This document shows, piece after piece, positions 1,965 through 59,751 of a stretch of 64,000 nt of DNA. Source of the DNA: Cetorhinus maximus (taxonomy: Eukaryota); contig NC_135901.1 in NCBI RefSeq assembly GCF_964194155.1, positions 930,001 to 994,000 of the forward strand, written 5' to 3'. The first letter of the stretch is position 1; every line of letters begins with the position of its first letter. The position numbers and the translations under genes were made by a program. Below the pieces are notes generated by a model. That model was not told the DNA's origin and did no database searches. It saw nothing but the letters and a program-made list of their open reading frames with translations.

Positions 1965-3705
1965 CAATATTTTTACCTCATTCTGGGATGTGGGCGTCAC
2001 TGGCTAAACCAGCATTTATTTCCCATCCCTGATTGGCCTTGAGAAGGCTGTGATGAGTTGCCTTCTTGAACAACAGCAGCCTATGTAATGTGGGTACACC
2101 CACAGTGCTGTTAGGTGGGGGGGGTGGGGGGAGTTCAGCATTTTGACCCAGCGACAGTGAAGGAATGGCGATATATTTCCAAGTCAGGTTGGTGAGTAGC
2201 TTGGAGGGGAACTTCTAGGTGGTGGTGTTCCCATGTGTCTGCTGCCCTTGTCCTTCCAGATGGTAGATGTTGCAGGTTTGGAAGGAGCTGTCAAAGGAGC
2301 CTTGGTGAGTTACTGTAGTGCATCTTATAAGATGATGTCACTGCGGGTCATTTGAGGAGGGTATGAATGTTTAAGGTAGTGGACGGGGCACCAATTAAGC
2401 TCGCTGCTCTGTGATGGATGTTGTTGAGCTTCTTGCGTGTTATTAAAATGCACTCATCCAGGAAAGTGGAGAATATTCCATCACACTCCTCACTTGTGCC
2501 TTGTAGATGATGGGGACGCTTTGGGGAGTGTCATGATGTGGCAGGAAATGCTTGCCAGGTGCACCAAATCCACAAGGGAAACTTGGCGACGCTATCACAA
2601 TGGTTTTGCAATTTGTATATATTTCAAAGAGCTTCATGCACTGTTCAGAAGTAATGAGTCAACTAATACCTTTAGAGACTTAAGCTAAGTTGAAACATTT
2701 ATTAACAAAAGAAAAGATTTCAAGCACATACATAAGATTACAGTTACTTAATACTATAACAAATCTCAAAATTCCTAATTAACCTGACTCCCAAGTACAC
2801 ACCCACTTTAAGGCAACAGTCCAAATAGATTTTAAATTTAAATAGCAAGCCAGCAAGTCTACCACAGCACATACTCGACTGAATTCCAAAGGCTTTTCTC
2901 CAAATTTAGTTACTAGACACAGCAGAGTTCTGCAAAAATGGCCGGAGGCTTCTATAAGGCTGTTTCACATACTCCTCTTAGATCTTACATGGCCCCACAA
3001 CAAAGCTTTTCATTCCTCTTTACATATATTTCTCGCTCTTTAATCTGTAAATTCCACTGTTCTATATGTCTTTGGAAATTTAGCTTTCCCATAATATAAA
3101 AATCTTTCATGTTGCCAATATGGTCAGTACCTTTTGGAAAAATAAACACACTGCTTGGCCTTGCTTATCTTGCTAGTTGTAAACATCCTATCATCCCTTT
3201 GAAACCAAACAACTCATTCATTTATCTAAAAATTCAAATTTCCTTCACATCTTATATGCTAAGCCCTTGTACATGTTTACTCATTAGCATTTATAATACC
3301 GTTTGTACACCTAACTTCTTTTGATAGCTTCAACCTAACAGTCTACATGACTCGAATTAAATCTCTCAAACAGAACCATGTACATTCACATCCATAAACC
3401 TACTTTACAATAAACCACAATAATATTATGAAAATTATTATAGTTTTGTGACAGGAGACACGAGGTGCGAAACACGCCACAGAATTCCCAGTGTCAACCT
3501 GTTCTTGTTGCCACACTATATATAAATATATATGGCCAGTCCAGCTCGGTTTCTGGTCAATGGTGACCCCCATGATGTTGATGTTGATCGTGGGGGTTTC
3601 AGTGATGGTAATGCCATTGAATGTCAAGGGGAGATGATCATTGCCTGGCACTAGTGTGAAGCAAAAGTAACTTGCCACCTGTCAGCCCAAGCCTGAAAAT
3701 TGTCC
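1965..3705 (-). mobile_element. CR1-group LINE (family B) 3' fragment, split by a solo LTR
   Basis: IYKAQVRSVMEYSPLSWMSA and HLPLTFNGITITE...GVTIDQK motifs. Same family as 5270-8800 and 44760-46220. Confidence 0.75.
2529..3453 (-). mobile_element. Solo LTR (probably Gypsy-type)
   Basis: Termini TGTCA...TGACA with a 4-bp TSD GGAG on both sides. The LINE sequence resumes across it, and there is a minus-strand AATAAA near 2700. Confidence 0.8.
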
Positions 3706-4663
3706 TCGCCCCAGTGTGAACTCTCTGGTGTCTCAGCAGGCTGGATGACAGCGTGAATCCCCTCCCACACTCGGAGCAGGTGAATGGTCTCTCCCCAGTG
3801 TGAACTCGCTGGTGTATAAGCAAGGTGGATGAGAGAGTGAATCTCCTCCCACAGTCAGAACAGGTAAATGGTCTCTCCCCACTGTGGACTTGCTGGTGTT
3901 TCAGCAGGTCGGATGACAGGGTGAATCCCCTCCCACACTCAGAGCACGTGAACGGTCTCTCCCCAGTGTGAATTCGCTGGTGTGTCACTAGGTGGCATGA
4001 GTGAGCAAATCGCCTCCCACATTCAGAGCAGGTGAATGGTCTCTCCCCAGTGTGAACTCGCTGGTGTGCCAGTAGGTGGGATGACTGAGTGAATCCCTTC
4101 CCACACTCGGAGCAGGTGAATGGCCTCTCCCCAGTGTGAGTGCGCTGATGTGCCAGGAGGTGGGATGACGAAGTGAATCCCTTCCCACACTCGGAGCAGG
4201 TGAATGGTTTCTCCCCAGTGTGAACTCGCTGATGTGTCAGCAAGAGAGATGACGCAGTGAATCCCTTCCCACAGTCAGAGCAGGTGAACGGCCTCTCCCC
4301 TGTATGAAGTTTCTGGTGTGTCAGCAGGCTGGATGACCAAGTGAATCCCTTACCACACTCAAGGCAGGTGAACGGCCTCTCCCCTGTATGAACTTTCTGG
4401 TGTGTCAGCAGGTTGGATGCCTGAGTGAATCCCTTACCACACTCAGGGCAAGTGAATGGTCTCTCCCCAGTGTGTACTCGCTGGTGTATCTGCAGGTAGG
4501 ATGACTGAGTGAATCCCTTTCCACAGTCTCCACATTTCCATGGCTTCTCCCTGTTGTGACTATGCTTGTGTCTCGACAGGCCAGATGAACGGCTGAAACC
4601 TCGTCCACACACAGAACACGTGTACGGTTTCTCCCCACTGTGAATGGTGCTTTTCCCTTCCAT
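3638..4663 (-). CDS. C2H2 zinc-finger protein, 11 fingers; C-terminus supplied by a LINE
   Basis: ATG at 4663 ([13 protein letters not shown]), 11 C-x2-C-x12-H-x3-H units with TGERP linkers. Splice acceptor tttcacag near 4772. Confidence 0.85.
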
Positions 4664-5269
4664 GTTCAAATTCCAATGATATTCAGGTGACAATAAATTG
4701 AGCAACTCTGTCAGATTCTGATGTGAGATTTGATTTGAGTTTCCTGACTGCTAATCCTCCACTTCTAATATCCTGTGAAATTGATTTAAAACAGATAAAA
4801 AGGGAATGAGACAGACCCCACAAAAACACAGAGACAGGTTGTATAATTGAGCTGAATGAATCTAGTAATTTGTGGGGCTGGCACAAGGAAAAAGTCACCA
4901 CAAAAGCTGCTGGATTGTCATCAAAACCCAACTGATTCACTAATATCCTTCAGGGAAGGGAACTTGCCACCTATTCTGGGTCTGGGTGTACACAATATTC
5001 TGGAAACTAGGTGAGGAGAGAGGGAGATGTGGGAGAGGGGGTGAAGGACAGGGATTTTATATGTTTACAGCTTGACCAGAACTTTGACAGAATCTCCCAA
5101 CCCCTCAAACTCAACCATCTAGAAGGACCAAGGTGGTAGGTGCACGTGAATATCATCACCTCTAAGTTCCCTTCCAAGTCACACACCATCCTTATTTGTC
5201 TGACATCCAGTACTGGATGAGCAACAATGTCTTTCATATAAATACTGCAAAAACTTTCCTTTCTTTCTT

Positions 5270-8200
5270 TCATTCATTCATGCAATGTAGCCGTCTCTGG
5301 CTTGGCCAACATTTATTGCCCATCCCTAATTGCATTTGAGAAGGTGGTGGTGAGCTGCCTTCTTGAACTGCTGCAGTCCCTGTGGTGTAGGTACACCCAC
5401 AGTGCTGTTCAGGAGGGAGTTCCAGGAGTTTGACCCAGCGACAGTGAAGGAACAGCGATATATTTTCAAGTCAGGATGGTGAGTGGCTTGGAGAGGAACT
5501 TCCAGGTGGTGGTGTTCCCATCTATCTGTTGCCTTCTAGATTTGAAACATGCTGTCTAAAGAGCCTTAGTGAGTTCCAGCAGTGCATTTTGTAGATGGTA
5601 CACACTGCTGCTACTCTGTGTCAGTGGTGGGAGGGAGTGAATGTTTGTGGATGTGGTGCCAATCAAGCAGCTGCTTTGTCCTGGATGGCGTCAAACCTCT
5701 TGAGTGTTGTTGGAGCTGCACTCATCCAGGCAAAGGGGGAGTATTCCATCACACTCCTGACTTGTGCCTTGTAGATGTTGGACTGGCTTTGGGGAGTCAG
5801 AAGGTGAGTTACTCGCTGGAGCATTCCTAGCCTCTGACCTGCTCGTGTAGCCGCAGTATTTATATGGCTGGTCCAGTTCAGTTTCTGGTCACTGGTGACC
5901 CCCAGGATGTTGATAGAGGGGGATTCAGCAATGGTAATGCTATTGAATGTCAAGGGAAGATGGTTAGATACTCTCTCGTAGAGATGGTCATTGTCTGACA
6001 CTTGTGCGGCATGAATGTTACTTGCTACTTGTCAGCCCAAGCCTGGATATCGTCCAGGTCTTAGAAACATAGAAAAGTTACAGCACAGAAGGAGGCCATT
6101 TGGCCCATCCTGTCCATGCCAGCCCAAGGACACCCAGGTGTCCTTTCTAATCCCACCTTCCTGCACCTGGCCCATAGCCCTGCAGCTTACAGCACTGAAA
6201 AGTTGCAAATCCAGGTACTTTTTAAAAGAGTTTAGAGTTTCTGGCTCTACCACCAACTTGGGCAGCGAATTCCAGACACCCACTACCCTCTGCGTAAAAA
6301 AGTTCTTCCTCATGTCCCCCCTACACCTTCTGCCACTTATCTTGAATCTATGTCCCCTGGTTCTAGAATTCTCCACCAAGGGAAACAATTTTATCCTGTC
6401 CACTCAATCTATTCCCCTCATCATTTTGTACACCTCAATCAAGTCACCTCTCAGCCTTCCTTGTTCAGAGGAAAATAACCCCAACCTATCCAATCTCTCC
6501 TCGTAGCTACACTTTTCTAACTCTGGCAACATTCTTGTAAACCTCCTCTGCACTCTCTCCAGAGCTATTACGTCCTTCCTGTAATGTGGTGACCAGAACT
6601 GCACACAATACTCCAGTTGTGGCCTCACCAGTGTTTTATACAATTCCAACATTATATCCTTACTTTTATATTCTATACCTCTGCCAATGAAGGAGAGCAT
6701 TCCATATGCCTTCTTTACAACCTTGTCCACTTGAACTGCTGCCTTCAGGTACCTGTGTACTTGTACGCCAAGATCTCTCACTTCATCTACACCTCTTAGT
6801 ATATTCCCGTTTATTTTGTAATCCCTGTAACTGTTTGACCTCCCTAAATGTATGACCTCATACTTCTCTATGTTAAAATCCATCTGCCACTTTACCGCCC
6901 ACTCCACCAACCCATCTATATCTTTTTGGAGATTTTGGCTATCCTCTACACTATCCACTACTCGGCCAATCTTTGTGTCATCTGCAAATTTCCCAATCGT
7001 ATCCCCCACATGCACATCCAAATCGTTAATATATAACACAAACAGCAAGGGTCCCAACACCGAGCCCTGTGGAACACCACTTGAGACAACTTTCCATTCG
7101 CAAGGGCATCCATCAACCATTACCCTTTGTTTCCTGTTACAAAGCCAACCTTTTATCCAGTTCGCCACATTATCCTGAATCCCATGGGCTTTTACTTTCC
7201 TGACCAATCTGCCATGTGGGACCTCGTCAAATGCCTTGCTAAAATCCATGTACACAACATCCACTGCACTACCTTCATCAACCCTTCTTGTCACTTCTTC
7301 AAAGAATTCAATCAAATTTGAGAGGCAAGACCTTCCTTTAACAAATCCATGCTGACCATCCCTGACTAGTCTTGCTGCATTTGGACATGGACTGCTTCAG
7401 TAACTGAGGAATCGTGAATGGTGCTGAACATTGTGCAATCATCAGCGAAAATCCCCACTTCTGACCTTATGGTGGAAGGAAGGTCATTGATGAAGCAGCT
7501 GAAGATGGTTGGGTCTTGGACACTGCCCTGAGGAACTCCTGCAGTGATGTCCTGGAACTCAGATGATTGATCTCCAACAACTATAATCTTCTTTTGTGCT
7601 AGCTATGACTCCAACCAGTAGAGAGTTCCCCCCTGATTCCCATTGACTCCAGTTTTGCTAGGGCTCCTTGATGCCACACTCAGTCAAATGCTGCCTTGAT
7701 GTCAAGGGCAGTCACTCTCACCCCACCTCTGGAGTTCAGTTCTTTTGTTCATGTTTGAACCAAAGCTTTAATGAGGTCAGGAGCTGAGTGGCCCTGGCGA
7801 AACACAGACTCAGTGTCATTGCTCTGCAAGTGCTGCTTGATAGCACTGTTGATGAACCCTTCCCTCACTTTACTGATTATCAAGATTAGACTGATGGGTC
7901 TGCAATTGGCCAGGTTGGACAAATCTAAGCAATTTTCCACATTGCCAGGTACATGCCAGTGTTGCAGCTGTATTGGAACAGCTTGGCCAGAGGCGTGGCA
8001 AGTTCTGGAGCACAAGTATTCAGTACGATTGCCGGAATATTGTCAGGGCCCATAGCCTTTACATTATCCACTGCCTTCAGCCATTTCTTGATATCATATG
8101 GAGTGAATCGAATTGGCTGAAGACTAGCATCTGTGAAGACGGGGACCTCTGGAGGAGGCAGAGCTGGATCACCCACTCAGCACTTCTGGCTAAAGATTGT

Positions 8201-20350: not shown

Positions 20351-20468
20351 CTCAGTCAGGGAATGAAGCTTACAGCAAAATTCAGTTAATGCTGGGAATC
20401 TGAATTAAAACAGAAAATTCTGCAAATACTCAGCAGGCCCAGCATATATGGAGAGAGAAATTGAGTTA

Positions 20469-23400
20469 TATTATGGTCCCAGCTGATGTTACTACTGGGC
20501 AAGTCATATATTAGGGTGGAACACGTCTTGATAGATCCTAACTTTTATTTTTTGTTTAGAAACGAGGAGGGCAGCGATTGAACTGAGTCACAGGAGTCAT
20601 CTGATGAACTTTGAATAAAAGAATAAAGCATTTATTAAACAAGAAAAGATTAACAATATTAAAATACTCCTTCACCCACAACTATATATTTACAGATATA
20701 TACAGATTTGTAAGGATGACACAAGTAACAAAAGCTATCTTATACTGTAATGTTCACAGTTAGTACACATTCCATGTAAACCAATAGGCAACTTGTGGTC
20801 AGACACACCACACTCTGAAACCAAGTGACAGATGCCACCCCAAACAGATGCAATGGATCTTTCATCAAATCCCCCTTCCCCAGACACTTATCACACCATG
20901 AGCCAACCGGTCTCAATGAACCCAATCTTTGACATGAGGGTTTATAATCTCCACTCTCAAGAAACCTGCATGGAATCTTCTCCCAAATGACACGTTTTCT
21001 CAGATGCCATCCACAAGGGTCCACCTCCAGGGTTTCAAACTCTCCATCTGATGTCCCTATCCCCTGGATCGCCACGTGCATTCAAGCCTTCTTCCACACA
21101 CTCTCTCTCTGGTTCAGCAATGCCAACAGAACACCACTGCTTCACATGCCATGGTGAAGAGTTACAGACATTCAACTGTCTACTTGGATCGTCTGTCTTC
21201 TTGCAAGCCTATTTTGCTTTAAGTCTGCTTCCTGCAGCTTTCTCCCCTTTTAGCTTGGAGTCTTCCTTCCTGCTCCTTGCTTTCACTTGCACTGAACAGG
21301 ATCTTTTCCAGATTCATGTCCTTGTCCTTAGACTTAACTATCCTCTTGGGACCTTTCCTGTTCCACTCCCTGGTTTTTGGGGCTTTCTTCTTTAGTTTTT
21401 GGAACCTGCTCTTGAGTTTTCCACCTCCTGTGTCCAGCTTCTCCCGTCACCTGACTCAAACTGAACTCAAACTGCTTTCAATTTCTCCGTGTCTCTCTGT
21501 CTGAGCCCCCTGTTGCTAGACAACAGCACAGTTTTTTCTACCTTGTGTTTGTTTAACTCCCCTTCAAGAGTCGTAAAACCTAATTAAAATGCAGGCATCT
21601 TTTAAAGTGAAACTGAAACTCAAGCTCCACCCTTTCTTAACACACAAATACAGAAATAGAAATCAAACTTAAACTTAAAGATAAAACTAATAAAACACCT
21701 GCAAATACAAATACAACTTACTTAAACTATCTACAGTTCATAACACTTTATCCTTTGAAAGAAAGAAAGTTTCACAACAGTGAATGTGTTTTTACAATGG
21801 CCTTACATCCGCCAAACACAAACTTAACATCATAAACCTCTAACAATAGCTTATTACATACTATATTAATAAATCTACCATCTATTTGCACAACTACACG
21901 TGTTATGTTGTACAACTACAAAAATTTAAGCAAAACAAAGTCTATAAATGTAACAAAACTGGCAGAATTTGTCCACCATAACATTATCATAACTCAACCC
22001 CTGTGGTTCTTTTTTCTCTTATTCCAGGTGCAATTCCATCCTCAAGCTCATTTTCCGAACTCACATGTGATAAATTCTCATTTCGATTTAGCAAAGTCAA
22101 AATGCCAGTTTTGCACATTAACATCTCATTTCTTCTTTGATCAAAACCTCTTTTCATCATTTCATGGATGGTGTTGAGATGCCTTTTATGTTTACACAAA
22201 CGGGTTTCCTACTCCTGCTTGGTTTAATCTTTAATTTTTTAATGATCTTGTTTCTCCCAATCCCATTTTAAACAGGTCTTCTCCACTTCTCTTTCAGCAG
22301 CATCAATTGTTTTCTCCCTTTGCAATTTCATTGTTTGTTCTAACTCTTCAACTCTTTTGCACAATCCATGAACCATATCATGCCAGTGCTCACTCAGCAG
22401 GCTTTGAATGGTCATTTGCAAACTGTTGAATTGCCTGAATTCCAACTTCTGTATCTTGTATATTAGCACTGACAAGCACCTGTAAATCAGTGTCTCTAGT
22501 GAATGAACTGAAAGGGTAATTTTGCATTTTCAGGCCTTTTTGTTGATGCTTCTTAGTTTCCAATTCTGTAGGCACTTCAGTTTTTTCTGCACAGCCCATT
22601 ACTGAAGTTGATACATGTTACTTGGATCAGTTTTTTTGCTCAATTGGACCACAATTCAGCAATAAATGTTTACTCACAGAACAACTTCAGAACGGTGACA
22701 CTCCATACCACACACTTTCTCCTTCATTTCCTCCAGTTTGCATTGAAGTTCGAGGACCTCATTATTCTTTTCCTGATGAAGCTCTAACCGTTCGTTAGTT
22801 TTGGCTTTAAATTCTGCATTCAACCAATTATTCTGTTTTACCAACAATTCCTTTTCTTGTTGAAGGCATTTTCCACGATACTTCATAACAACTTCTGATG
22901 CGTGAAGCTCATCAAGTTTTAACTGAAGATTGAACTTTGTTAAATTTGCTTCTACAAATAAATCATTTAGGTATTTCAAGTCCTCCGTCAAATGCCCTAC
23001 TCTCCATGGCTGATTCTCAATTGTTCTCACTAATTCTCATTTTTCATTAGCCAACTCCTCTCTTGTACGTGAAAGTTGGTTTCCTGCATTAATAAGGTTT
23101 TCCTTCAATGTTTGCTTCATTTCTGGCCACAGTAATTTTCTGAAATTTGTTAAGATCAGCATGATCAACTACCTGCTGCCTGCTGCAGTACAGTTATCAC
23201 CACATCACTGTCTCCACTAGCCAAATCATTACCCAGAACAAAACCTACCCCCTCAATAGATGATTTAGGAATAATTCCCACCGTAACAATTCCATTTACA
23301 AAGTGACTTTACAAGTTGACTTTACACAAAGAAACAGGTTAATAAATTCCATTAATACCTCGTATTGATACTTCTTCCTTCATAAAACTGCCTGGAACAC

Positions 23401-24449
23401 AAATTGTATCATCAGCCACCATCAATGGCTGATCTGCTCCAGTGTCTCTAAAAATTTTGACTATTTACTTATTTTGCTGGAGGAGTAATGGAACACTTCT
23501 CCCTTCCAGACTAAACATCCAGAACCTCTAATAGCCTGCCTTCCTTCAGCAGTAATCAAAGAAGAATTCTCTGGACTACCCTGAACCATACCCCCCTTTC
23601 CTGTGGGTTCTAAGGGCACACGTTTCACCTGGACTACTGCTACAGTTTTAACAACCATTTCCTTTTCTGATGCAACCTTTCCTGAGGATTCCTTGGACCT
23701 TTCTTTGTATCTTGTCCCAAATGATGCTTTCGCTCAGACACCTTCCACAAAGGTCCACCTCCAGGGTTTCAAACTCTCCATCTGATGTTCCTCTCCCCAG
23801 ATCACCACGTGCATTCAAGCTTCCTTCCACGCATTCTCTCTCTAACTCAGCTGTGCCAACACAACACCGCTGCTCATGTGCCCAGAGTAAAGAGTTACAG
23901 GCCAGCTGTCTCCTTGGATCTTCTTACTTCTCGCAAGCCTATTTTGCTTTAAGCCTGCTTCCTTCAGCTTTCTCCCTTTTAAGCTCGGAGCCCTCCTCTC
24001 TGCCCCTTGCTTCCACTTCCAGGTTCCTATCCTTGTTCTTGACTTAACTGCCCTCTGGTACCTTTCCAGTTCCACTGCTTGGTTTTGCTGATTTTCTTCT
24101 TCAGTTTTTGGAACTTGCTCCTGCAGTTCCCACTCCTGTGTCCAGCTGCTCCTGGCACCTGGCTTCAACTGAATTCAAACTGCTTTCGGTCTCTCTGTGT
24201 CTCTCTATGTGGGCCTCCTTTTGGCAGACAACAGCAGATTTTTTCTACCTTGTGTTTGGCTCCCCTTCAAGAGCTATGAAACCTAATTGAAATGCAGGCA
24301 TCTTTTAAAGTGAAACTGAAACTCTAGCTCCCCCTTTCTTAACACACAAATACAGAAATACAAAACAAATTTAAACATAAAGCTAAAACTCATTCCTAAC
24401 ATCCACAAATACAAATATATCTTACTTAAACTACCTCTACTTCCTAACA
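20469..24449 (-). mobile_element. Decayed Gypsy (Gmr1-like) LTR element with internal deletions and captured host sequence
   Basis: LTR copies at 20469-21745 (complete) and about 23710-24449 (partial), both ending TAACA on +. Purine tract AAAGGATAAAG precedes the 3' LTR. Protease IFRDTGADQPL...GVGFVLGNDLA at about 23212-23465. Confidence 0.8.
22690..23120 (-). pseudogene. TPR: Intronless fragment of nucleoprotein TPR (N-terminal coiled coil)
   Basis: QLSRTREELANEK*ELVRT...LTEDLKYLN...[36 protein letters not shown]...[12 protein letters not shown] matches my recollection of vertebrate TPR at roughly residues 95-230. Confidence 0.85.
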
Positions 24450-25370
24450 GTTGCAGCAGCAAGTAAATGAGGTGGGGTGAAGACAGGTAGCATTATGGAG
24501 ATTGAACTATCTGGTATTAGTGATGGTGTGGATATGTGGTCAGAAGCTCATCTTGGGGTCAAATCTGAACCAAGATTGTGAACAGTGTGGTTCAACCTCA
24601 GACAGTTCCCAGGGAGCGGGATGGACTCAGTAATTAAGGAACAGTATTTATAGTGGTGACCGAATGGTTTTGGTCTTCCCAATTTTTAACCGAAGGAAAT
24701 TTCTGCTCATCCAGTACTGGGTGTCGGATAAGCAGATTGATAATTTAGCTACAGTAGCGGAATGGAGAGGGATGGTGCTGAGGTAGAGCTGGGCATTGTC
24801 AGTGTACATGTGAAAACTAACACGGTGCTTTTGGATGGTGTCACCTAGTGGCAGCTTGTAGATAAGAAATAGGAGGGACCAAGGATAGATCCTTGAGGGA
24901 CACCAAGAGCAGGAACTTTGGAGAGGAAAGGACGGTTGAGATTGAGTGGTAGTTTGCAAAGATGATGGGGGTCAAAGGTTGATTTTTAGGATGGGCGATG
25001 TCAGTGGATTTAAAGGTGAGAGAAACAGTACCAAAAGAGAGAGAGAACTGCTAACAGTATCAGCTAATGTGGGGAAGATGAATAATCAGCAGCTTAGTGA
25101 GAATAGGGCCAAAGAAGTAAAAGGTCAGGGACAAGATGAGCTCTGAGAGGCCATAACAGGAGACAGGAGCAAAACTGGAAAAAGATGTGAGTTCAGGGCT
25201 CAGATATGAGGGAACTTTAGAGACAGTTTGTCCCGGTGGGCTAGTGGATGGGAGGGAAGCAGCAGAGGCAGCTGATTGGATTGTCTCAATCTTAGTGACA
25301 AAGAAGCTCCATGAGCTCCTCACGTTTGTTGTTGAAGATGAAGATAGAGGAGATGGGGAGAGGGAGAGCC
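24450..25370 (-). mobile_element. L2 LINE RT fragments
   Basis: LLFLIYKLPLGDTIQKHRVSFHMYTDNAQLYLS and FFVTKIETIQSAASA. Confidence 0.75.
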
Positions 25371-25527
25371 CTTCAAAAGTAACTAACTTACGTTTGAGAT
25401 ATTAAGAAGACTTAGCACACTGTATTTAACACAAAGATGATTTATTTTACTTTTATCTTCAATATCAGCAGACACAGACCACAATGAACATGGTTCAGTC
25501 CTGAATGTGATTAGCAGCAAAATCCAA

Positions 25528-26565
25528 TCACTTGTGAACTCGCTGGTGTTTCAGAAGGTGGGACATCTGAGTGAATCCCTTCCCACACTTGGAGCAAATG
25601 AATGGTTTCTCCCCAGTGTGAAGTCGCTGGTGCGTCAACAGGTGGGATGACTGAGTGAATTCCTTCCCACACTCAAAGCAAGTGAATGGCCTCTCCCCAG
25701 TGTGAACTCGCTGGTGCATCAGCAGGTTGGATGACTGAGTGAATCCCTTCCCACACTCGAAGCAGGTGAACGGACTCTCCCTAGTGTGAACTCGCTGGTG
25801 TCTCAGCAGTGTGGATGACTGACTGAATCCCTTCCCACATTCAGAGCAGGTGAACGGTCTTTCCCCTGTATGAGTGCGCTGGTGTACACTGAGTTGAGAT
25901 GATTGCCTGAACCTAGTTCCACAATGAAAGCACCTGAACGGTCTCTCATCAGTATGAACACGTTGATGGAACATCAGCTCCTGAGAGCTTTTATAGCACT
26001 TCCCACAGTCTAAGCATTTAAAAGGTCTCTTGTCGGTGTGAACTCTTTAATGTGCCATCAGGCTGGATGAATTAATGAATCCCTTTCCACACTCAAGGCA
26101 GGTGAACGGCCTCTCCCCAGTGTGAACTCGCTGGTGTGTCAGCAGGTGGGATGAACAAGTGAATCCCTTTCCACACTCGGAGCAGATAAATGGCTTCTCC
26201 CCAGTGTGAGTTCGCTGGTGTGCACTGAGGTCAAATAAATGCCTGAAACCAGTCCCACAGTGAGAGCACCTGAATAGTCTCCCATCAGTGAGAACTCTTT
26301 GGTATGTCAACAGGTTACATGAATGAGTGTCTCCTTTCCCGCATTCGGAGCAGATGAATGGCCTCTCCCCGGTGTGACTGTGCAGACGAGTTTTCAGTTC
26401 AGATGGGTGATTGAATCCCTTCCCACAGTCCCCACATTTCCACTCTTTCTCCCCATTCTGGCTGCATTTATGTCTCGACAGGTCAGATGATCTGCTGAAG
26501 CCTCGTCCACACACAGAGCACGTGTACTGTTTCTCTCTGCTGCAAACTGAGCTTTTTCCTTCCAT
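25528..26565 (-). pseudogene. C2H2 zinc-finger pseudogene or truncated gene, 12 finger positions
   Basis: ATG at 26565. In-frame TAA at 26047-26049 in finger 6 (probably CAA>TAA), after which the frame continues to 25528. Fingers 1-3 have lost zinc-ligand histidines. Confidence 0.8.
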
Positions 26566-34496: not shown

Positions 34497-36890
34497 ACAT
34501 CAGTCGTCTCAATTTCTCTGCTCCTCTCACCCACTCTAACCTGTCTTTCTCTGAACTTGCCGCACTCCTTCTCTCATGTCCAACCCTGATGTTGTCAGCA
34601 AACCTGCTGACAAGGGTGGTGCTGTTGTTGTCTGGTGCACTGAACTCTACCTCGCAGAGGCTCAGCGTCAACTCGCAGACACTTCCTCCTACCTCCCCCT
34701 GGACCATGACCCCACCACTGAACATCAAGCCATTGTTTCCAGGACTGTTACTGACCTCATCTCCTCTGGAGATCTTCCTTCCACAGCTTCCAACCTCATA
34801 GTTTCCCAACCTCGGACAGCCCGCTTCTACCTCCTATCCAAAATCCACAAACAGGACTGTCCCAGCAGACCGATCGTGTCAGCCTGTTCCTGCCCCATGG
34901 AACTCATTTCTTGCTATCTTGACTCCATTCTCTCTCCCCTTGTCCAGTCCATTCCCACCTACATCCGCGATTCCTCTGACACCCTACATCATATCAACAA
35001 TTTCCAGTTCCCTGGCTCCAACCGCCTCCTCTTCACCATGGACGTCCAATCCCTCTACACCTCCATCCCCCACCAGGATGGTCTGAGGGCTCTCCACTTC
35101 TCCCTCGAACAGAGGCCCGAACAATCCCCATCCACCACTACTCTCCTCCATCTGGCTGAACTTGTTCCCTCACTGAACAATTTCTCCTTAAACTCTTCTC
35201 TCTTCCTCCAAATAAAAGGTGTGGCTATGGGTACCCACATGGGCCCCAGTTATGCCTGTCTCTTTATGGGGTATGTGGAACATTCCTTGTTCCAGTCCTA
35301 CTCCGGCCCCCTCCCACAACTCTTTCTCTGGTACATCGATGACTGCTTTGCTGCTGCTTCATGCTCTCGTCTGGACCTGGAAAAATTTATTAATTTTGCT
35401 TCCAATTTCCACCCCTCTATCATTTTCACATGGTTGATCTCTGACACTTCCCTTCCCTTCCTTGACCTCTCTGTCTCAATTTCTGGTGATAGACTGTCCA
35501 CCAATATCCATTACAAGCCTACCGACTCCCACAGCTACCTTGACTACAGCTCCTGACACCCTGCTTCCTATAAGGACTCCATCCTATTCTCTCAGTTCCT
35601 TTGCCTCCGTCGCATCTGTTCTGATGATGCCACTTTCAAAAACAGTTCCTCTGACATGTCTTCCTTCTTCCTTAACCGAGGTTTTCCACCCATGGTGGTT
35701 GAAAGGGCCCTCAACCGTGTCCGGCCCATCTCCCGCGCATCCACCCTCACGCCTTCTCCTCCCTCCCAGAACCATGATAGTGTCCCCTTTGTCCTCACTT
35801 ATCACCCCACCAGCCTCCGCATTCAAAGGATCATCCTCCGCCATTTCCGCCAACTCCAGCATGATGCCACCACCAAACACATCTTCCCTTCACCCCCCCG
35901 GCGGCATTCTGCAGGGATCGTTCCCTCTGTGACACCCTGGTCCACTCCTCCATCACCCCCTACACCTCAACCCCCTCCCACGGCACCTTCCCATGCAACC
36001 GCAGAAGGTGCAACACCTGCCCCTTTACTTCCCCTCTCCTCACCGTCCAAGGGCCCAAGCACTCCTTTCAAGTGAAGCAGCATTTCACTTGCACTTACCT
36101 CAATTTAGTCTAGTGCATTCGCTGCTCCCAATGCGGTTTCCTCTACATTGGAGAGACCAAACACAGACTGGGTGACCTCTTTGCGGAACACCTTCGGTCT
36201 GTCTGTAAGCATGACCCAGACCTCCCTGTCGCTTGCCATTTCAACACTCCACCCTGCTCTCATGCCCACATGTCCGTCCTTGGCCTGCTGCATTGTTCCA
36301 GTTAAGCTCAACGCAAACTGGAGGAACAGCACCTCTTCTTCCGACTAGGCACTTTACAGCCTTCTGGACTGAACATTGAGTTCAACAACTTAAGATTATG
36401 AACACTCTCCTCCATCCCCACCCCCTTTCCAATCCCCCTTTTTTCCAATAATTTATATAGATTTTCCTTTTCCCACCTATTTCCATTATTTTTAAATGTA
36501 TTTCCATCCATTGTTTTATCTCTACTTTTTAGCCTATTTCGATCCCTTCCCCCCCACCCCACCCCCACTAGGGCTATCTGTACCTTGCTTGTCCTGCTTT
36601 CTACCCTTAATGTCACCTATTAGCACATTTCTTAGCTAATATCACCACCGTCAACACCTCTTTGTCCTTTTGTCTATGACATCTTTTGGCAATCTCCACC
36701 TATCAGTGGCCCTCTATTCAGCTCTACCTGTCCCATTCCCACCCCTTAAACCAACTTATATTTCACCTCTCTTCTATTTTTCCTTAGTTCTGTTGAAGAG
36801 TCATACGGACTCAGAACGTTAACTGTGTTCCTCTCCGCAGATGCTGCCAGTCCTGCTGAGTTTTTCCAGGTATTTTTATTTTTGTTTTTG
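34497..36890 (+). mobile_element. Penelope-like retroelement (RT, GIY-YIG endonuclease, pLTR tail), 5' truncated with a few disablements
   Basis: KPADKGGAVVVW, FTMDVQSLYTSIPH, GVAMGTHMGPSYA, YIDD and PFLD motifs; CNRRRCNTC and CSQC..LYIGETK; mutated hammerhead at 36785-36825. Confidence 0.92.
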
Positions 36891-50033: not shown

Positions 50034-50777
50034 TCAGTCCTGAATGTGATTCACAGCAGAATTCAATAATTGCCATTTCTTGTGAACTTGCCGGTGTCTA
50101 AGCAGGGTGGATGACTGAGTGAATCCCACCCCACATTCGGAGCAGGTGAACAGTTTCTCTCCGCTGTGAGTGCGCTGGTGTGCAGTGAGATGAGATGATC
50201 GCCTGAACCCAGTCCCACAGTGAGAGCACCTGAATGGTCTCTCGTCAGTGTGAACACGTTGATGGTACATCAGTTCCTGGGGAGTTTTATAGCACTTCTC
50301 GCAGTCTGGACATGTGAAAGGTCTCTCGTCAGTGTGAACTCGCTGGTGTGTCAGCAGGTTGGCTGAAAAAATGAACCCCTTCCCACACTCAGAACAGATG
50401 AACGGTCTCTCCCGAGTGTGAACCCGCTGATGTGTCAGTAGGTTGGATGACTGCGTGAATTCCTTCCCACAATCGGAGCAGGTGAAGGGCCTCTCACCAG
50501 TGTGAGTGCGCTGGTGTGTCAGCAGGGTGGATGACTTACTAAATCCCTTCCCACAGTGGGAGCAGGTGAATGGCTTCTCCCCGGTGTGAGTGCGTCGATG
50601 AATTTCCAGCTCTGATGGGTAATCAAATCCCTTCCCACAGTCACCGCATTTCCACGGTTTCTCCCTGTTGTGATGGCATTTATGTTTTGACAGGCCAGAT
50701 GATTGGTTGAAGCCTCGTCCACACACAGAACACGTGTACAGTTTCTCCCCACTGTGAACCGTGCTTTTTCCTTCCAT
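50034..50777 (-). CDS. C2H2 zinc-finger protein, 8 fingers plus AVNHIQD tail
   Basis: ATG at 50777 ([13 protein letters not shown]), 8 intact fingers and acceptor tttcacag at about 50888. Confidence 0.88.
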
Positions 50778-52143
50778 GTTCAAATTCAGATGATATTCAG
50801 GTTACGATAAATTTGGTAATTCTGTCAGATCCTGAAGTGATGTTTGGTTTCCAGTTTCCCATCTGCAAATCCTTCCCTTTGAATACTCTGTGAAATTGAT
50901 TTAAAACAGAAAAAAGGGAGTGAGAAAGAACCCACAAAAACACTAAGGCAGGTTGTGAAATTGAGCTGAATGAATCTGGTCATTTGTGGGGCCGGCACTG
51001 GGAAAAGTGACTTCGGAAGTGACTGGATTGTCATAAAAACCCAACTGGTTCACTAATGTCCTTAAGGGAAGAGAACCTGCCACCCAGTCCAGGCCTACAC
51101 AAGGCTTTGGGCTCTAAGGGAGGAGAAGGATGGAGCAAGGGACAGAGAAGTGGGAGATGCAGGAGGTAAAGGAGAGGGATTTTATATATCTACAACTCAG
51201 CCATATCTTTGACAGAACCGCCCAAACCCTTAAGCTCCACCGCCTAGAAGGTAACAGGTGTATGTGAACACAATCAACTCCAAGTTCCCCGCCATCTCAA
51301 ACTGACTCAACAAAGGAAGGGGAATTGGACAAGCACCTGAAGAGAAAGAAAATGCTGGGCTACGAGGAAAGAGCAGGGGAGTGGGACTAACTGATTTGTC
51401 CTTGCAGAGAACCAGCACGAGCTCAATGGGCTAAAGGCCTCCTTCTGTATTGTAATCAGTCAATGACTCTATGATTCAGTGACAAAGGACCAACACAGGA
51501 GGCCAGGGACCAATCTCTGCAGCCAACACCCACTCCGACACAAATAGCTCTTAATTGGTCCATCTCTGTTTCCAGACTCAGTTCTGTGAGGAACATCTGC
51601 AATAAAACAAAAGCAAAATACTGCAGATGCTGAAAATCTGAAATAAATGAGCTAATGCTGGAAATATTCAGCAGGTCAGGCATTATCTGTGTAGAGAGAA
51701 ACAGAGTTAATGTTTCAGTGTGTGCAGAATGAATTATGGGGAAGAAAATAGTGCAGAATTTGATGGTCATTATAACTCAGAAACTGAAGAGAAATTGACT
51801 ATAGCGCTAAAAATAATTCCTGACTATGAAAGATACTGTGGGAAGATAAAGCTGGGAAGCCAGCAGCCCATGGTCAGGGGATGGGCAGCTGTGGGAGCCT
51901 CATTTAGACATGGTCAGCAGAAGTAACAGTAAATGTTAAACAGAGTTAAAATACACCCATTATTAGAGACAGAGAAAGTTAGATAATGAAAGAGAGGTGA
52001 ATAGGGAGGGCAGAAACAGAGCAATGGATGGGCATGAATTCAGATCCACAATAAAGGAATCCCAGAGCCATAGAACCTGTCACAGATAACTGAGTTTAGC
52101 AAGAAAAGCTCTAAATTGTAGATGAATGGTCAAAAATACTCAC

Positions 52144-57860: not shown

Positions 57861-58602
57861 AAACAGAAAAATTACAGGTGTTGGGAAAGTTTGGATTGGG
57901 GATTTTTTTCTTTAGAAAAAGGAAGCGTGAGCAGTGAGCTGATAGATGTCTTCACAATGATCAACGGGTTGGACGGGGTAGATATGGAGACAATGTTTCC
58001 ACTTGAAATTTCTTTACTCAGAGAGTGGTGAGAGGATGTGGAACTCACAGAAACCATTGAGGGAAGAAAACTGATAATTTCAACAGGAAACTAGATGAGT
58101 ATGTGAGAGAAAAGGGATTAGAAAGATAAACTGAAAGGCTGAGATAATTTGCATGGAATGGGAGGAGAAGCATAAAACTAGCAGAATAGTTGGACAGAAT
58201 GGCCTATTTGTTTATTGCATATTTTGAGTATTTCAAATTAAACTCTTTTTACAGGGCATTCAGAGGGTTTGATTTGCAGATGGGAGATTCAAACCAAACA
58301 TCACATCAAGATCTGACAGAGACAATTGCTTCACCAGGACCTGAATATCATCGGCCTTTGAATGTGGAAGGAGGAATGTTTGTCTGTGAGAAAAGATTTC
58401 AAACATCAATGTGACTGGAAAAGCACGAAGACAGACACACGCCCAAGTGACAGTGTTGCAGTGAATTGACTGTGGAAAGAGTTAACCAGTTACACAGCCT
58501 GAAAAAACATCACAGTGAGGGAGAGACTGTACACATATTGTATGTGTGTGGCCTGGGTTCAACTGACCACGCAACCTGGAGAGGCACAAGGACACCCGCT
58601 CC

Positions 58603-59751
58603 ACGGGGAAACCGTGGAAATGTGGGGACTGTGGGAAGGGATTCAATTCCCCATCTGAAGTGGAAACTCATCGACGCAGTCACACTGGGGAGAGACCGTT
58701 CACCTGCTCTGTGTGTGGGAAGGGATTCACTCAGTCATCCAGCCTCTACACACACCAGCATGTTCATACTGGTGAGAGGCCATTCACCTGCCTTGAATGT
58801 GGGAAGGGATTTAATGCTTTATCAAACCTCCGGACTCACCATCGTGCTCATTCTGATGAGAGACCATTTAAATGTTCTGACTGTGAGAAGAGCTTTAAAA
58901 GCAGAAAGGATCTACTGACACACCAACGCACTCACACTGGGGAGAGGCCATTCACCTGCTCAGTGTGTGGGAAGGGATTCACTCAGTCATCCCACCTCCT
59001 GACACACAAACTTGTTCACACTGACAAGAGACCTTTTGAATGTTGTGACTGTGAGAAGAGCTTTAAAAGCAAAAAGGATTTACTGAACCACGAACGCACT
59101 CACACTGGGGAGAGGCCATTTACCTGCTCCGTGTGTAGTAAGAGATTCACTTGTTCATCCCACCTTCTGACACACCAATTTGTTCACACTGATCAGAGAC
59201 CTTTCCATTGTTCTGACTGTGAGAAGACATTTAAAAGCAAAAAGGATCTTCTGAAACACCAACACACTCACACTGGGGAGAGGTTATTCACCTGCTCTAT
59301 CTGTGGGAAGGGATTCACTCGGTTAGCCCACCTGGTGAGACACAATCGAGTTCACACTGGGGAGAGGCCATTCACCTGCAGTCAATGTGGGCAGGAATTC
59401 ATTGATTCATCTGACCTTCTGATACACCAGCGAGTTCATTTTGGGGAGAAACCATACACCTGCCTTGTGTGCGGCAAGAGATTCACTCAGTCATCTCATC
59501 TCACTACACACCAACTTGTTCACACTGATCATAGGCCTTTTAAGTGTTCTGACTGTGAGAAGAGATTTAAAAGTAAAAGGAATCTGCTGACACACCAGCG
59601 AGTTCACACTGGGGAGAGGCCGTTCACCTGCTCAATGTGTGGGAAGGGGTTCGCTCAGTCAAACAACCTGCTGAGACACCAGCAAGTTCACATGCGACAG
59701 CGGGGGTTGGGTTCTGTTGTTATTGCTGCTGTTAATCACATCCAGGACTGA
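58603..59751 (+). CDS. C2H2 zinc-finger array, 13 intact fingers plus VIAAVNHIQD tail; ACG at the expected start
   Basis: Open from the TGA at 58564-58566 to 59751. [17 protein letters not shown] start; the only in-frame ATGs are in and after the last finger. Confidence 0.75.
   Translation, partial: TGKPWKCGDCGKGFNSPSEVETHRRSHTGERPFTCSVCGKGFTQSSSLYTHQHVHTGERPFTCLECGKGFNALSNLRTHHRAHSDERPFKCSDCEKSFKSRKDLLTHQRTHTGERPFTCSVCGKGFTQSSHLLTHKLVHTDKRPFECCDCEKSFKSKKDLLNHERTHTGERPFTCSVCSKRFTCSSHLLTHQFVHTDQRPFHCSDCEKTFKSKKDLLKHQHTHTGERLFTCSICGKGFTRLAHLVRHNRVHTGERPFTCSQCGQEFIDSSDLLIHQRVHFGEKPYTCLVCGKRFTQSSHLTTHQLVHTDHRPFKCSDCEKRFKSKRNLLTHQRVHTGERPFTCSMCGKGFAQSNNLLRHQQVHMRQRGLGSVVIAAVNHIQD

Follow-up and report, generated by a model that had tools for sequence, protein, structure and literature searches.

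Based on its comparison with related copies and with the host gene, the segment 24449-20469 on the minus strand of the window (the whole 64-kb stretch of DNA analysed here) belongs to a non-autonomous Gypsy (Gmr1-like) LTR family, of which it is one decayed member. As the initial annotation had proposed, this family took up spliced mRNA of the nuclear-basket nucleoporin TPR in the place of pol, in one frame with gag and protease, and spread with it; the order in the family to which the window copy belongs (family A) is Gag, protease, TPR piece and an orphan coil, all in one frame and without pol. LTR-mediated gene capture is a known process, and what is unusual here is its scale, the read-through fusion in the place of pol and the preservation of intermediates; because these intermediate forms persist in the genome, the succession of events, from capture through trimming to module swap, is directly visible. 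As for the role of the captured piece, we give a probability of roughly one half to a reading in which it served as a generic helical dimer rod behind the protease, replacing contacts made by Pol, with selection acting on frame and shape and not on TPR-specific surfaces.

Layout and identity of the element

The gag-pro remnant, the RDTGA and GNDLA protease motifs, the purine tract and the 3' LTR of the Gypsy element named in the initial annotation could all be placed on the minus strand (Table 1), and the TPR piece is followed by an orphan tail, whose second half is predicted as two long helices. The LTR pair (24449-23709 against 21745-20469) is 80.6% alike over 777 columns (K2P 0.17), and a 4-base target duplication, CAAC on one side and TAAC on the other (one mismatch), flanks the element. 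The partial 5' LTR and the reduced gag are true of the window copy but not of the family, since they result from one private deletion of about 2 kb (23709/23691), which took the end of the 5' LTR, the primer site and most of gag; full LTR and gag are present in other family A copies. Additionally, the protease of the window copy is broken (by two stops and by a loss of frame near 23460), its tail is broken as well (with a 67-base piece missing near 22025), and the frame of the TPR part is interrupted near 23170 and again near 23109, in addition to the single stop first reported (23039-23037). The 64-kb window also contains C2H2 zinc-finger arrays and remnants of LINEs.

Table 1. Features of the element and its flanks (window positions)
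Feature	Position	Strand	Basis or remark
Target-site duplication, left copy CAAC	24450..24453	-	partner TAAC, one mismatch
5' LTR, first ~740 of ~1280 bases	23709..24449	-	
Gag end / spacer behind zinc knuckle	23518..23691	-	alignment with gag-complete copies
Aspartic protease remnant, RDTGA 23449-23435, GNDLA 23233-23219	23213..23517	-	motifs, copy alignment
End of host TPR 5' UTR, then the initial ~30 codons (exon 1)	23125..23212	-	73% alike to host
TPR exon 3 end, after family-wide deletions of 162 + 39 bases	23082..23104	-	
TPR exon 4, stop at 23039-23037	22985..23081	-	74% alike to host
TPR exon 5	22881..22984	-	80% alike to host
TPR exon 6, PF25481 match	22716..22880	-	75% alike to host
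TPR exon 7, first bases; captured piece ends here in family A	22702..22715	-	
First half of orphan tail: linker predicted to be unstructured, in part common with TPR-less family C	22400..22701 (approximate)	-	
Second half of orphan tail: predicted to form two long helices; homologous to the coil of family C	21990..22399 (approximate)	-	
Polypurine tract	21746..21756	-	sequence
3' LTR, complete, ~1277 bases	20469..21745	-	
Target-site duplication, right copy TAAC	20465..20468	-	

The assignment of the peptide to TPR was confirmed both by the match of window 23036-22677 to PF25481 (Nucleoprot-TPR, E 1.9e-19) and, for the TPR region of one family copy, by 61 proteins at E<=0.001 (out of 750 candidates), all of them with TPR Pfam domains. 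The host TPR gene lies on contig C18, where exons 1-12 were mapped, and the captured piece corresponds to exon 1, the end of exon 3, exons 4, 5 and 6 and the start of exon 7, crossing the host exon boundaries without introns, as claimed, with exon parts 65-80% alike to the host. The piece has the orientation first described, but it begins at TPR's own 5' UTR and start (23212) and comprises ~170 codons, not about 140, with 201 host bases missing. In family A, the exon joints 3/4, 4/5, 5/6 and 6/7 are spanned in 101, 103, 103 and 65 of the 108 copies, respectively, and in family B (described below) joints 1/2 to 8/9 are spanned in 1-18 of 20 copies. A PDB sequence search with the TPR piece returned no solved relative, and a search of annotated proteins for fusion forms returned only TPR itself (lengths 367-1171), with nothing at 82-263 residues.

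By its gag and protease, we place family A as a non-autonomous Ty3/Gypsy derivative of Gmr1 type, given that 164 loci of families A, B and C showed no integrase or RT within the element itself (in agreement with the initial annotation) and that the integrase-before-RT order was seen only in relatives. Two pol-type matches occur among these 164 loci, one in a flank and the other weak and on the opposite strand. The Gag has a SCAN-like end (SCAN E 1.1e-8), which we take to be a mark of Gmr1 elements; the zf-CCHC (E 0.0014) and RVP (E 0.017) matches, from another copy, both fall short of the cut-off, and the D-T-G protease motif is present in 61 of 98 copies. The LTRs are paired, with TG..CA ends (pairs measured in 35 copies), a polypurine tract is present, and a conserved tract that follows the 5' LTR in most copies is a candidate primer-binding site. 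A 4-base target duplication with at most one mismatch flanks 5 of 7 placeable solo LTRs and 2 of 4 full copies, as well as the window copy. The genome also has autonomous Gypsy elements of Gmr1 type (e.g. L162), which share the SCAN Gag, the zinc knuckle, the protease and the TG..CA LTRs, and their gag is 72-81% alike in DNA to that of the family; nevertheless, they have other LTRs and their proteases form a clade separate from A and B. These relatives carry what we take to be integrase, RT and RNase H motifs, presumably with the integrase before the RT in one distant gag-pro match.

Copy number, junction and age of the family

Searching the 3.99 Gb genome yielded 1,957 candidates with the protein query (150 of 150 scored matched, on many contigs), 1,882 with the DNA query (40 scored) and 4,337 with the LTR; these totals are candidates and not copy numbers. 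At least 150 copies matched, and the family probably comprises about 2,000. Aligning 141 loci to the host mRNA gave 139 matches and, after removal of 11 duplicates, 108 copies of family A and 20 of family B. The protease-TPR junction is identical in 94 of the 96 family A copies covering that site, so it is not single-copy, and its 5' joint coincides with a 5-base microhomology, GCAGG, common to the protease end and the host TPR 5' UTR and located just upstream of the TPR start codon. When the 10 best gag-pro matches were picked blind to TPR, 8 had TPR, one had the tail only and one had neither, and TPR was absent in 9 of 10 more distant gag-pro matches. Of 20 sampled LTR matches, 18 proved to be solo LTRs, and pol adjoined none of the 20.

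The distance between paired LTRs of family A has a median of 0.127 (35 copies) and its tree, built on 99 of the 108 copies, is star-like, with no usable clades for a clade-based selection test. Copies that are ~99% alike were considered as recent jumps, an explanation that we rejected: in 5 of 5 cases the flanks are also 99.7-100% identical, and in three more they are 90-92% identical, so that these copies are segmental duplications. Contigs under three other organism labels (X5, X15 and X6; also X8) bridge the protease-TPR junction. As far as sampled, family A is old and dead. We did not convert its distances into years, since the available pedigree rate, 7e-10 per generation (PMC10587355), provides no per-year clock for decaying repeats.

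History of capture, trimming and module exchange

A query with host exon 2, which is absent from A, gave further matches in 39 of 40 scored candidates, and the 20 copies fetched belong to an older family, B, which carries TPR exons 1-12, is 81-86% alike to host TPR and has a median LTR distance of 0.216 (6 copies). One family B group has its junction at GCAGG, as in A, and in another the protease-integrase linker is joined in frame to TPR base 168; the proteases of A and B group together in a clade (support 0.91) that excludes the autonomous relatives. Beyond the stop, where B ends, there is a motif that we take to be RNase H-like, for which tblastn gave no match.

The 201-base deletion of A, present in 70 of 100 copies, is composed of 162 and 39 bases, as locus L240 has the 39-base deletion alone and keeps exons 1-2. 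In B, deletions of 51, 96 and 186 bases are found in 18 of 19, 6 of 9 and 7 of 11 copies, respectively. All five shared deletions (39, 162, 51, 96 and 186 bases) are multiples of three, which on a one-in-three baseline has P=0.004; large private indels, however, are multiples of three in 17 of 36 cases, and with this baseline the value is about P=0.02. A third family, C, found through a neighbour in L166, has gag, protease, linker and coil without TPR (25 loci gave no convincing match to it), and its coil has the same residue as the A tail in 49 of 102 columns, with differences distributed 35/24/45 by codon position. The passage from B to A comprised stepwise in-frame trimming and the exchange of the 3' part of TPR for the orphan coil common with C; since the C coil is homologous to the A tail, A would most simply be a recombinant of a B-type front and a C-type back.

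The gene from which the tail came was not found by Pfam, fold or PDB profile searches (no match in the first two, E>0.1 in the last), and a weak test for a longer homologue was also negative; in the Atlas, scores stayed under 0.8. In a search of 1.84 billion sequences, with a profile that spanned only the first 167 positions of the tail, the matches were one chance leucine-rich-repeat match and three hypothetical proteins of Scyliorhinus torazame. The latter, of which GCB84592.1 crosses the TPR-tail joint, are the tail's only named homologues and suggest that the genome is that of a shark. A search for the Sds3 family, a lead from the top retrocopy parents of cartilaginous fishes, gave no match, and its controls likewise had none.

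The origin of the fusion would be explained by a template switch during reverse transcription, at the 5-base microhomology, by which spliced host TPR mRNA came to stand in the place of pol, in frame behind the protease; the in-frame trimming from B to A, and the exchange of the 3' part for the coil module common with C, came later. Such a capture matches the model for LTR-mediated retrocopies (PMC5131818), such as maize Bs1 and human FAM8A1 in HERV-K, in which a spliced partial mRNA also replaces internal ORFs at microsimilarity, modules from several sources are joined and the chimera moves on as a non-autonomous element. Those cases have few insertion sites (1-5 copies for Bs1; PMC5131818), against at least 150 and probably about 2,000 copies here, and they differ from the present one in its read-through fusion to the protease and its long series of in-frame deletions and swaps. 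CrocERV29 (KIT ligand) and CrocERV31 (nectin3) are likewise vertebrate LTR lineages that spread with a host mRNA and show in-frame indels (PMC4299795); they are, nevertheless, retroviruses with 9 and 6 copies and not Gypsy elements, their cargo is a separate ORF between pol and env or replacing env instead of being fused and replacing pol, and it is under purifying selection (PMC4299795), whereas the TPR cargo is near neutral. Full-text literature searches showed no account of an LTR family with TPR, although this one may be catalogued unnamed in Repbase, Dfam or subscription journals. A vertebrate retrocopy survey (bioRxiv 10.64898/2026.06.26.734816) gives other top parents for cartilaginous fishes and its main text does not contain TPR as a whole word; its supplements may list TPR retrocopies.

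Selection, predicted fold and proposed role of the captured piece

Across 34 family A copies, the protease frame is free of majority-stop triplets over 446 codons, where the other two frames contain 41 and 56 of them, and then ends in 4 majority-stop columns within 19 codons. The family C frame is open for 340 codons (with 24 and 36 such triplets in the others), and that of B for 121 codons past host base 1272. The continuous gag-pro-TPR frame expected by the initial annotation exists at family level, yet no copy out of 55 is open from gag to tail; the protease-to-TPR stretch is open in 19 of 95 copies, and two copies have natural frames of 669 and 558 codons from gag through protease into TPR. 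A dN/dS below 1 had also been anticipated, and against the host we obtained 0.23 for A and 0.11 for B (copy decay alone scores 0.55-0.58 by the same method); this low value, however, comes mostly from the host branch, with a three-way split of the TPR changes giving 6N/19S for the host, 2N/5S for B and 32N/16S for A, the element branch thus being near neutral. On the A branch, 162 TPR columns have 46N/23S against 18.6 S expected (P=0.14; BLOSUM shift P=0.20), a test of limited power with which mild constraint is still compatible. No stop or proline is the commonest state in any of these 162 columns, decay changes being 7.4% stops and 4.5% prolines (about 2 prolines were expected, which makes their absence weak by itself), and hydrophobic TPR positions are kept in 35 of 36 cases, not more than polar ones (P=0.61).

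Within A, gag and protease are under purifying selection, with 20N/36S and 4N/8S, respectively, among common non-CpG variants, against a baseline from rare transitions of about 2.2-2.5 N per S; consequently, a Gag-protease polyprotein was made. The common non-CpG variants of TPR (18N/10S) differ from those of gag and protease together (24N/44S, P=0.013). This contrast is blurred by the comparison of A with B, where the protease (13-15N/9S) is not clearly lower than TPR (34N/21S). The frame was clearly kept, while TPR-specific sequence is not demonstrably so, its amino acids being near neutral.

Structure prediction suggests that the remaining TPR piece is one helix that pairs with itself. For one natural copy, AlphaFold2 predicts an unbroken helix at 32-187 across both deletion joints, and ESMFold2 predicts in-register pairing, with a homodimer score of 0.39 against 0.00 for the best of 3 controls (contact agreement >=96% and pLDDT >=85 across runs); the mark is passed by 17 of 29 eukaryotic solved pairs (7 of 16 for animals) and by none of 30 single chains; such a pass may reflect the predictor's memory of TPR-like coils. 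In TPR itself, the ZC3HC1-binding region (ZBD1) is at aa 29-88 and the basket-binding region (ZBD2/basket domain) at aa 386-481 (bioRxiv 10.64898/2026.10.08.757499), and L458/M489 were also mapped for basket docking (PMC3258255). Taking human numbering as near equal, A lacks about aa 34-103 and everything past aa 238, and B lacks aa 356-417 and ends near 462, so that A either lost the basket-docking regions by deletion or never had them, and in B they are incomplete. This loss argues against the pore targeting suggested by the initial annotation.

In the rod reading, the element would have made its own Gag and protease and relied on an autonomous relative of Gmr1 type for RT and integrase, and the rod would have stood in for Pol-Pol contacts that aid protease dimerisation or polyprotein assembly. 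There are two partial parallels: TPR-kinase fusions, which are tumour rearrangements joining the N-terminal 140-230 residues of TPR to an enzyme (PMC3258255), and laboratory constructs of HIV-1 protease, in which a foreign coil behind the enzyme drives pairing and increases Gag-PR multimerisation and cleavage (PMC3291649). Unlike these, the TPR piece studied here is C-terminal to the enzyme, belongs to a natural heritable element and is only predicted to dimerise. The conserved frame, the in-frame shared deletions, the absence of stop or proline columns, the purifying selection on gag and protease, the predicted self-pairing helix and the Gag-protease-linker-coil layout of family C, without TPR, count in favour of the rod. 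Against it stand the lack of a selection signal on the TPR amino acids, the frequency of in-frame private indels, the absence of an autonomous partner with the family A LTR among 20 LTR matches and the fact that a dimeriser can harm, as the HIV-1 zipper caused premature cleavage and fewer particles (PMC3291649).

The main rival, which we regard as possible but unlikely, is that the TPR piece and the tail were only stop-free sequence carrying ribosomes towards the 3' LTR, with the protein irrelevant and the benefit being help to packaging in cis or the shielding of unspliced RNA from nonsense-mediated decay, since retroviral RNAs are degraded when they contain early stops. A frame kept while TPR amino acids drift at the neutral rate, the stepwise shrinking of the TPR part and the contrast of common variants mentioned above are all expected from such filler. 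Nevertheless, judging from the LTR positions, the stop is in any case followed by about 1.4 kb of untranslated RNA, plain deletion would be a simpler way to shorten the RNA, A gained a second helical module, present also in C, rather than losing length, and no prolines were fixed in the TPR part, a point that is weak alone. It is improbable, in our view, that the piece was a pure passenger, captured once in frame by chance and hitch-hiking on a successful LTR/gag backbone, with all later in-frame events due to luck: near-neutral amino-acid change and the star-like tree of one burst are compatible with it, as is the observation that young LTR-mediated retrocopies are mostly in frame by youth (14/17; PMC5131818), but it leaves unexplained the five in-frame deletions, the four in-frame junctions and a frame with no family-level stop that then closes abruptly.

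Rather improbable as well is that a released piece paired with host TPR or docked at the basket, helping export or integration. TPR retains CTE-type unspliced RNA, for which its localisation at the pore is required (PMC3258255), and short TPR segments homodimerise (bioRxiv 10.64898/2026.10.08.757499); B was also nearly host-like while spreading, so pairing with host TPR was possible then. Nevertheless, both ZBD1 and ZBD2 are gone from A and cut in B, 46 of 162 columns of A no longer match the host, without a sign of selection for likeness to TPR, and family C spread without TPR. We give only a slim chance to the decoy version, in which the protease-released rod would have paired with new host TPR and kept it off the basket, letting unspliced element RNA be exported; here the deletion of docking surfaces would be expected, since a decoy must not dock, and B would represent that phase. 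The absence of introns agrees with an ordinary single processed pseudogene fallen into an LTR element, but nothing further does, and this origin is refuted by the recurrence of the junction, by the matches of all scored candidates and by pol being replaced and not interrupted.

Whichever its role, the family provides a vertebrate case of captured host mRNA read as part of a polyprotein through at least two waves of spread, and not as dead cargo. Considered alongside family C, it suggests that pol-less Gypsy elements may follow a Gag-protease-coil design and, with the rod reading, offers a testable claim on what Pol contributes besides its enzymes. Additionally, the hundreds to thousands of TPR look-alikes in shark genomes can mislead annotation and retrocopy counts, and they could yield small RNAs against an essential gene.

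Related families and exchange of gag

Family C (L166:7400-9200 and L182-L206) is a distinct, non-autonomous, Gmr1-like family with a gag-protease-linker-coil layout, in which the frame stays open for 340 codons past the protease and the coil is common to family A, the family of the element itself; neither TPR nor pol is present at these loci. The older family B (L082-L101 and L240-L247) carries a TPR part extending to exon 12, two junction types and an orphan tail of its own (about 80 codons), followed 3' by what we take to be a decayed RNase H-like motif. Within family A, the gag of copy L178, whose LTR pair is the closest seen (distance 0.089), clusters with the autonomous relatives in the tree (support 0.999), which indicates an exchange of gag through recombination.

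Other possible captures

For cartilaginous fishes, a vertebrate retrocopy survey names MIPOL1, SUDS3, SDF2L1, SLU7 and ZNF276 as top retrocopy parents (bioRxiv 10.64898/2026.06.26.734816); these might be further LTR-amplified captures. A trial search with the Sds3 family gave no match, and the controls were equally without match.

Genomic setting

Some 35 kb upstream of where host TPR begins, there is a gag-pro remnant of Gmr1 type (L062:3700-4540; G000:C18:68513719-68514535), probably by chance, the genome being repeat-rich. The zinc-finger cluster block containing the element is duplicated at least 10 times, on the window's contig and on small contigs, with flanks 90-100% alike, and the insertion site adjoins the third reverse transcriptase remnant listed.

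Features surrounding the element in the window
Feature	Position	Detail
C2H2 zinc-finger array	3638-4750	84-base repeat
C2H2 zinc-finger array	25495-26550	84-base repeat
C2H2 zinc-finger array	50034-50801	84-base repeat
C2H2 zinc-finger array	58567-59751	84-base repeat
Reverse transcriptase remnants	6404-7396, 34555-35556, 24648-24971	presumably LINE-like and Penelope-like
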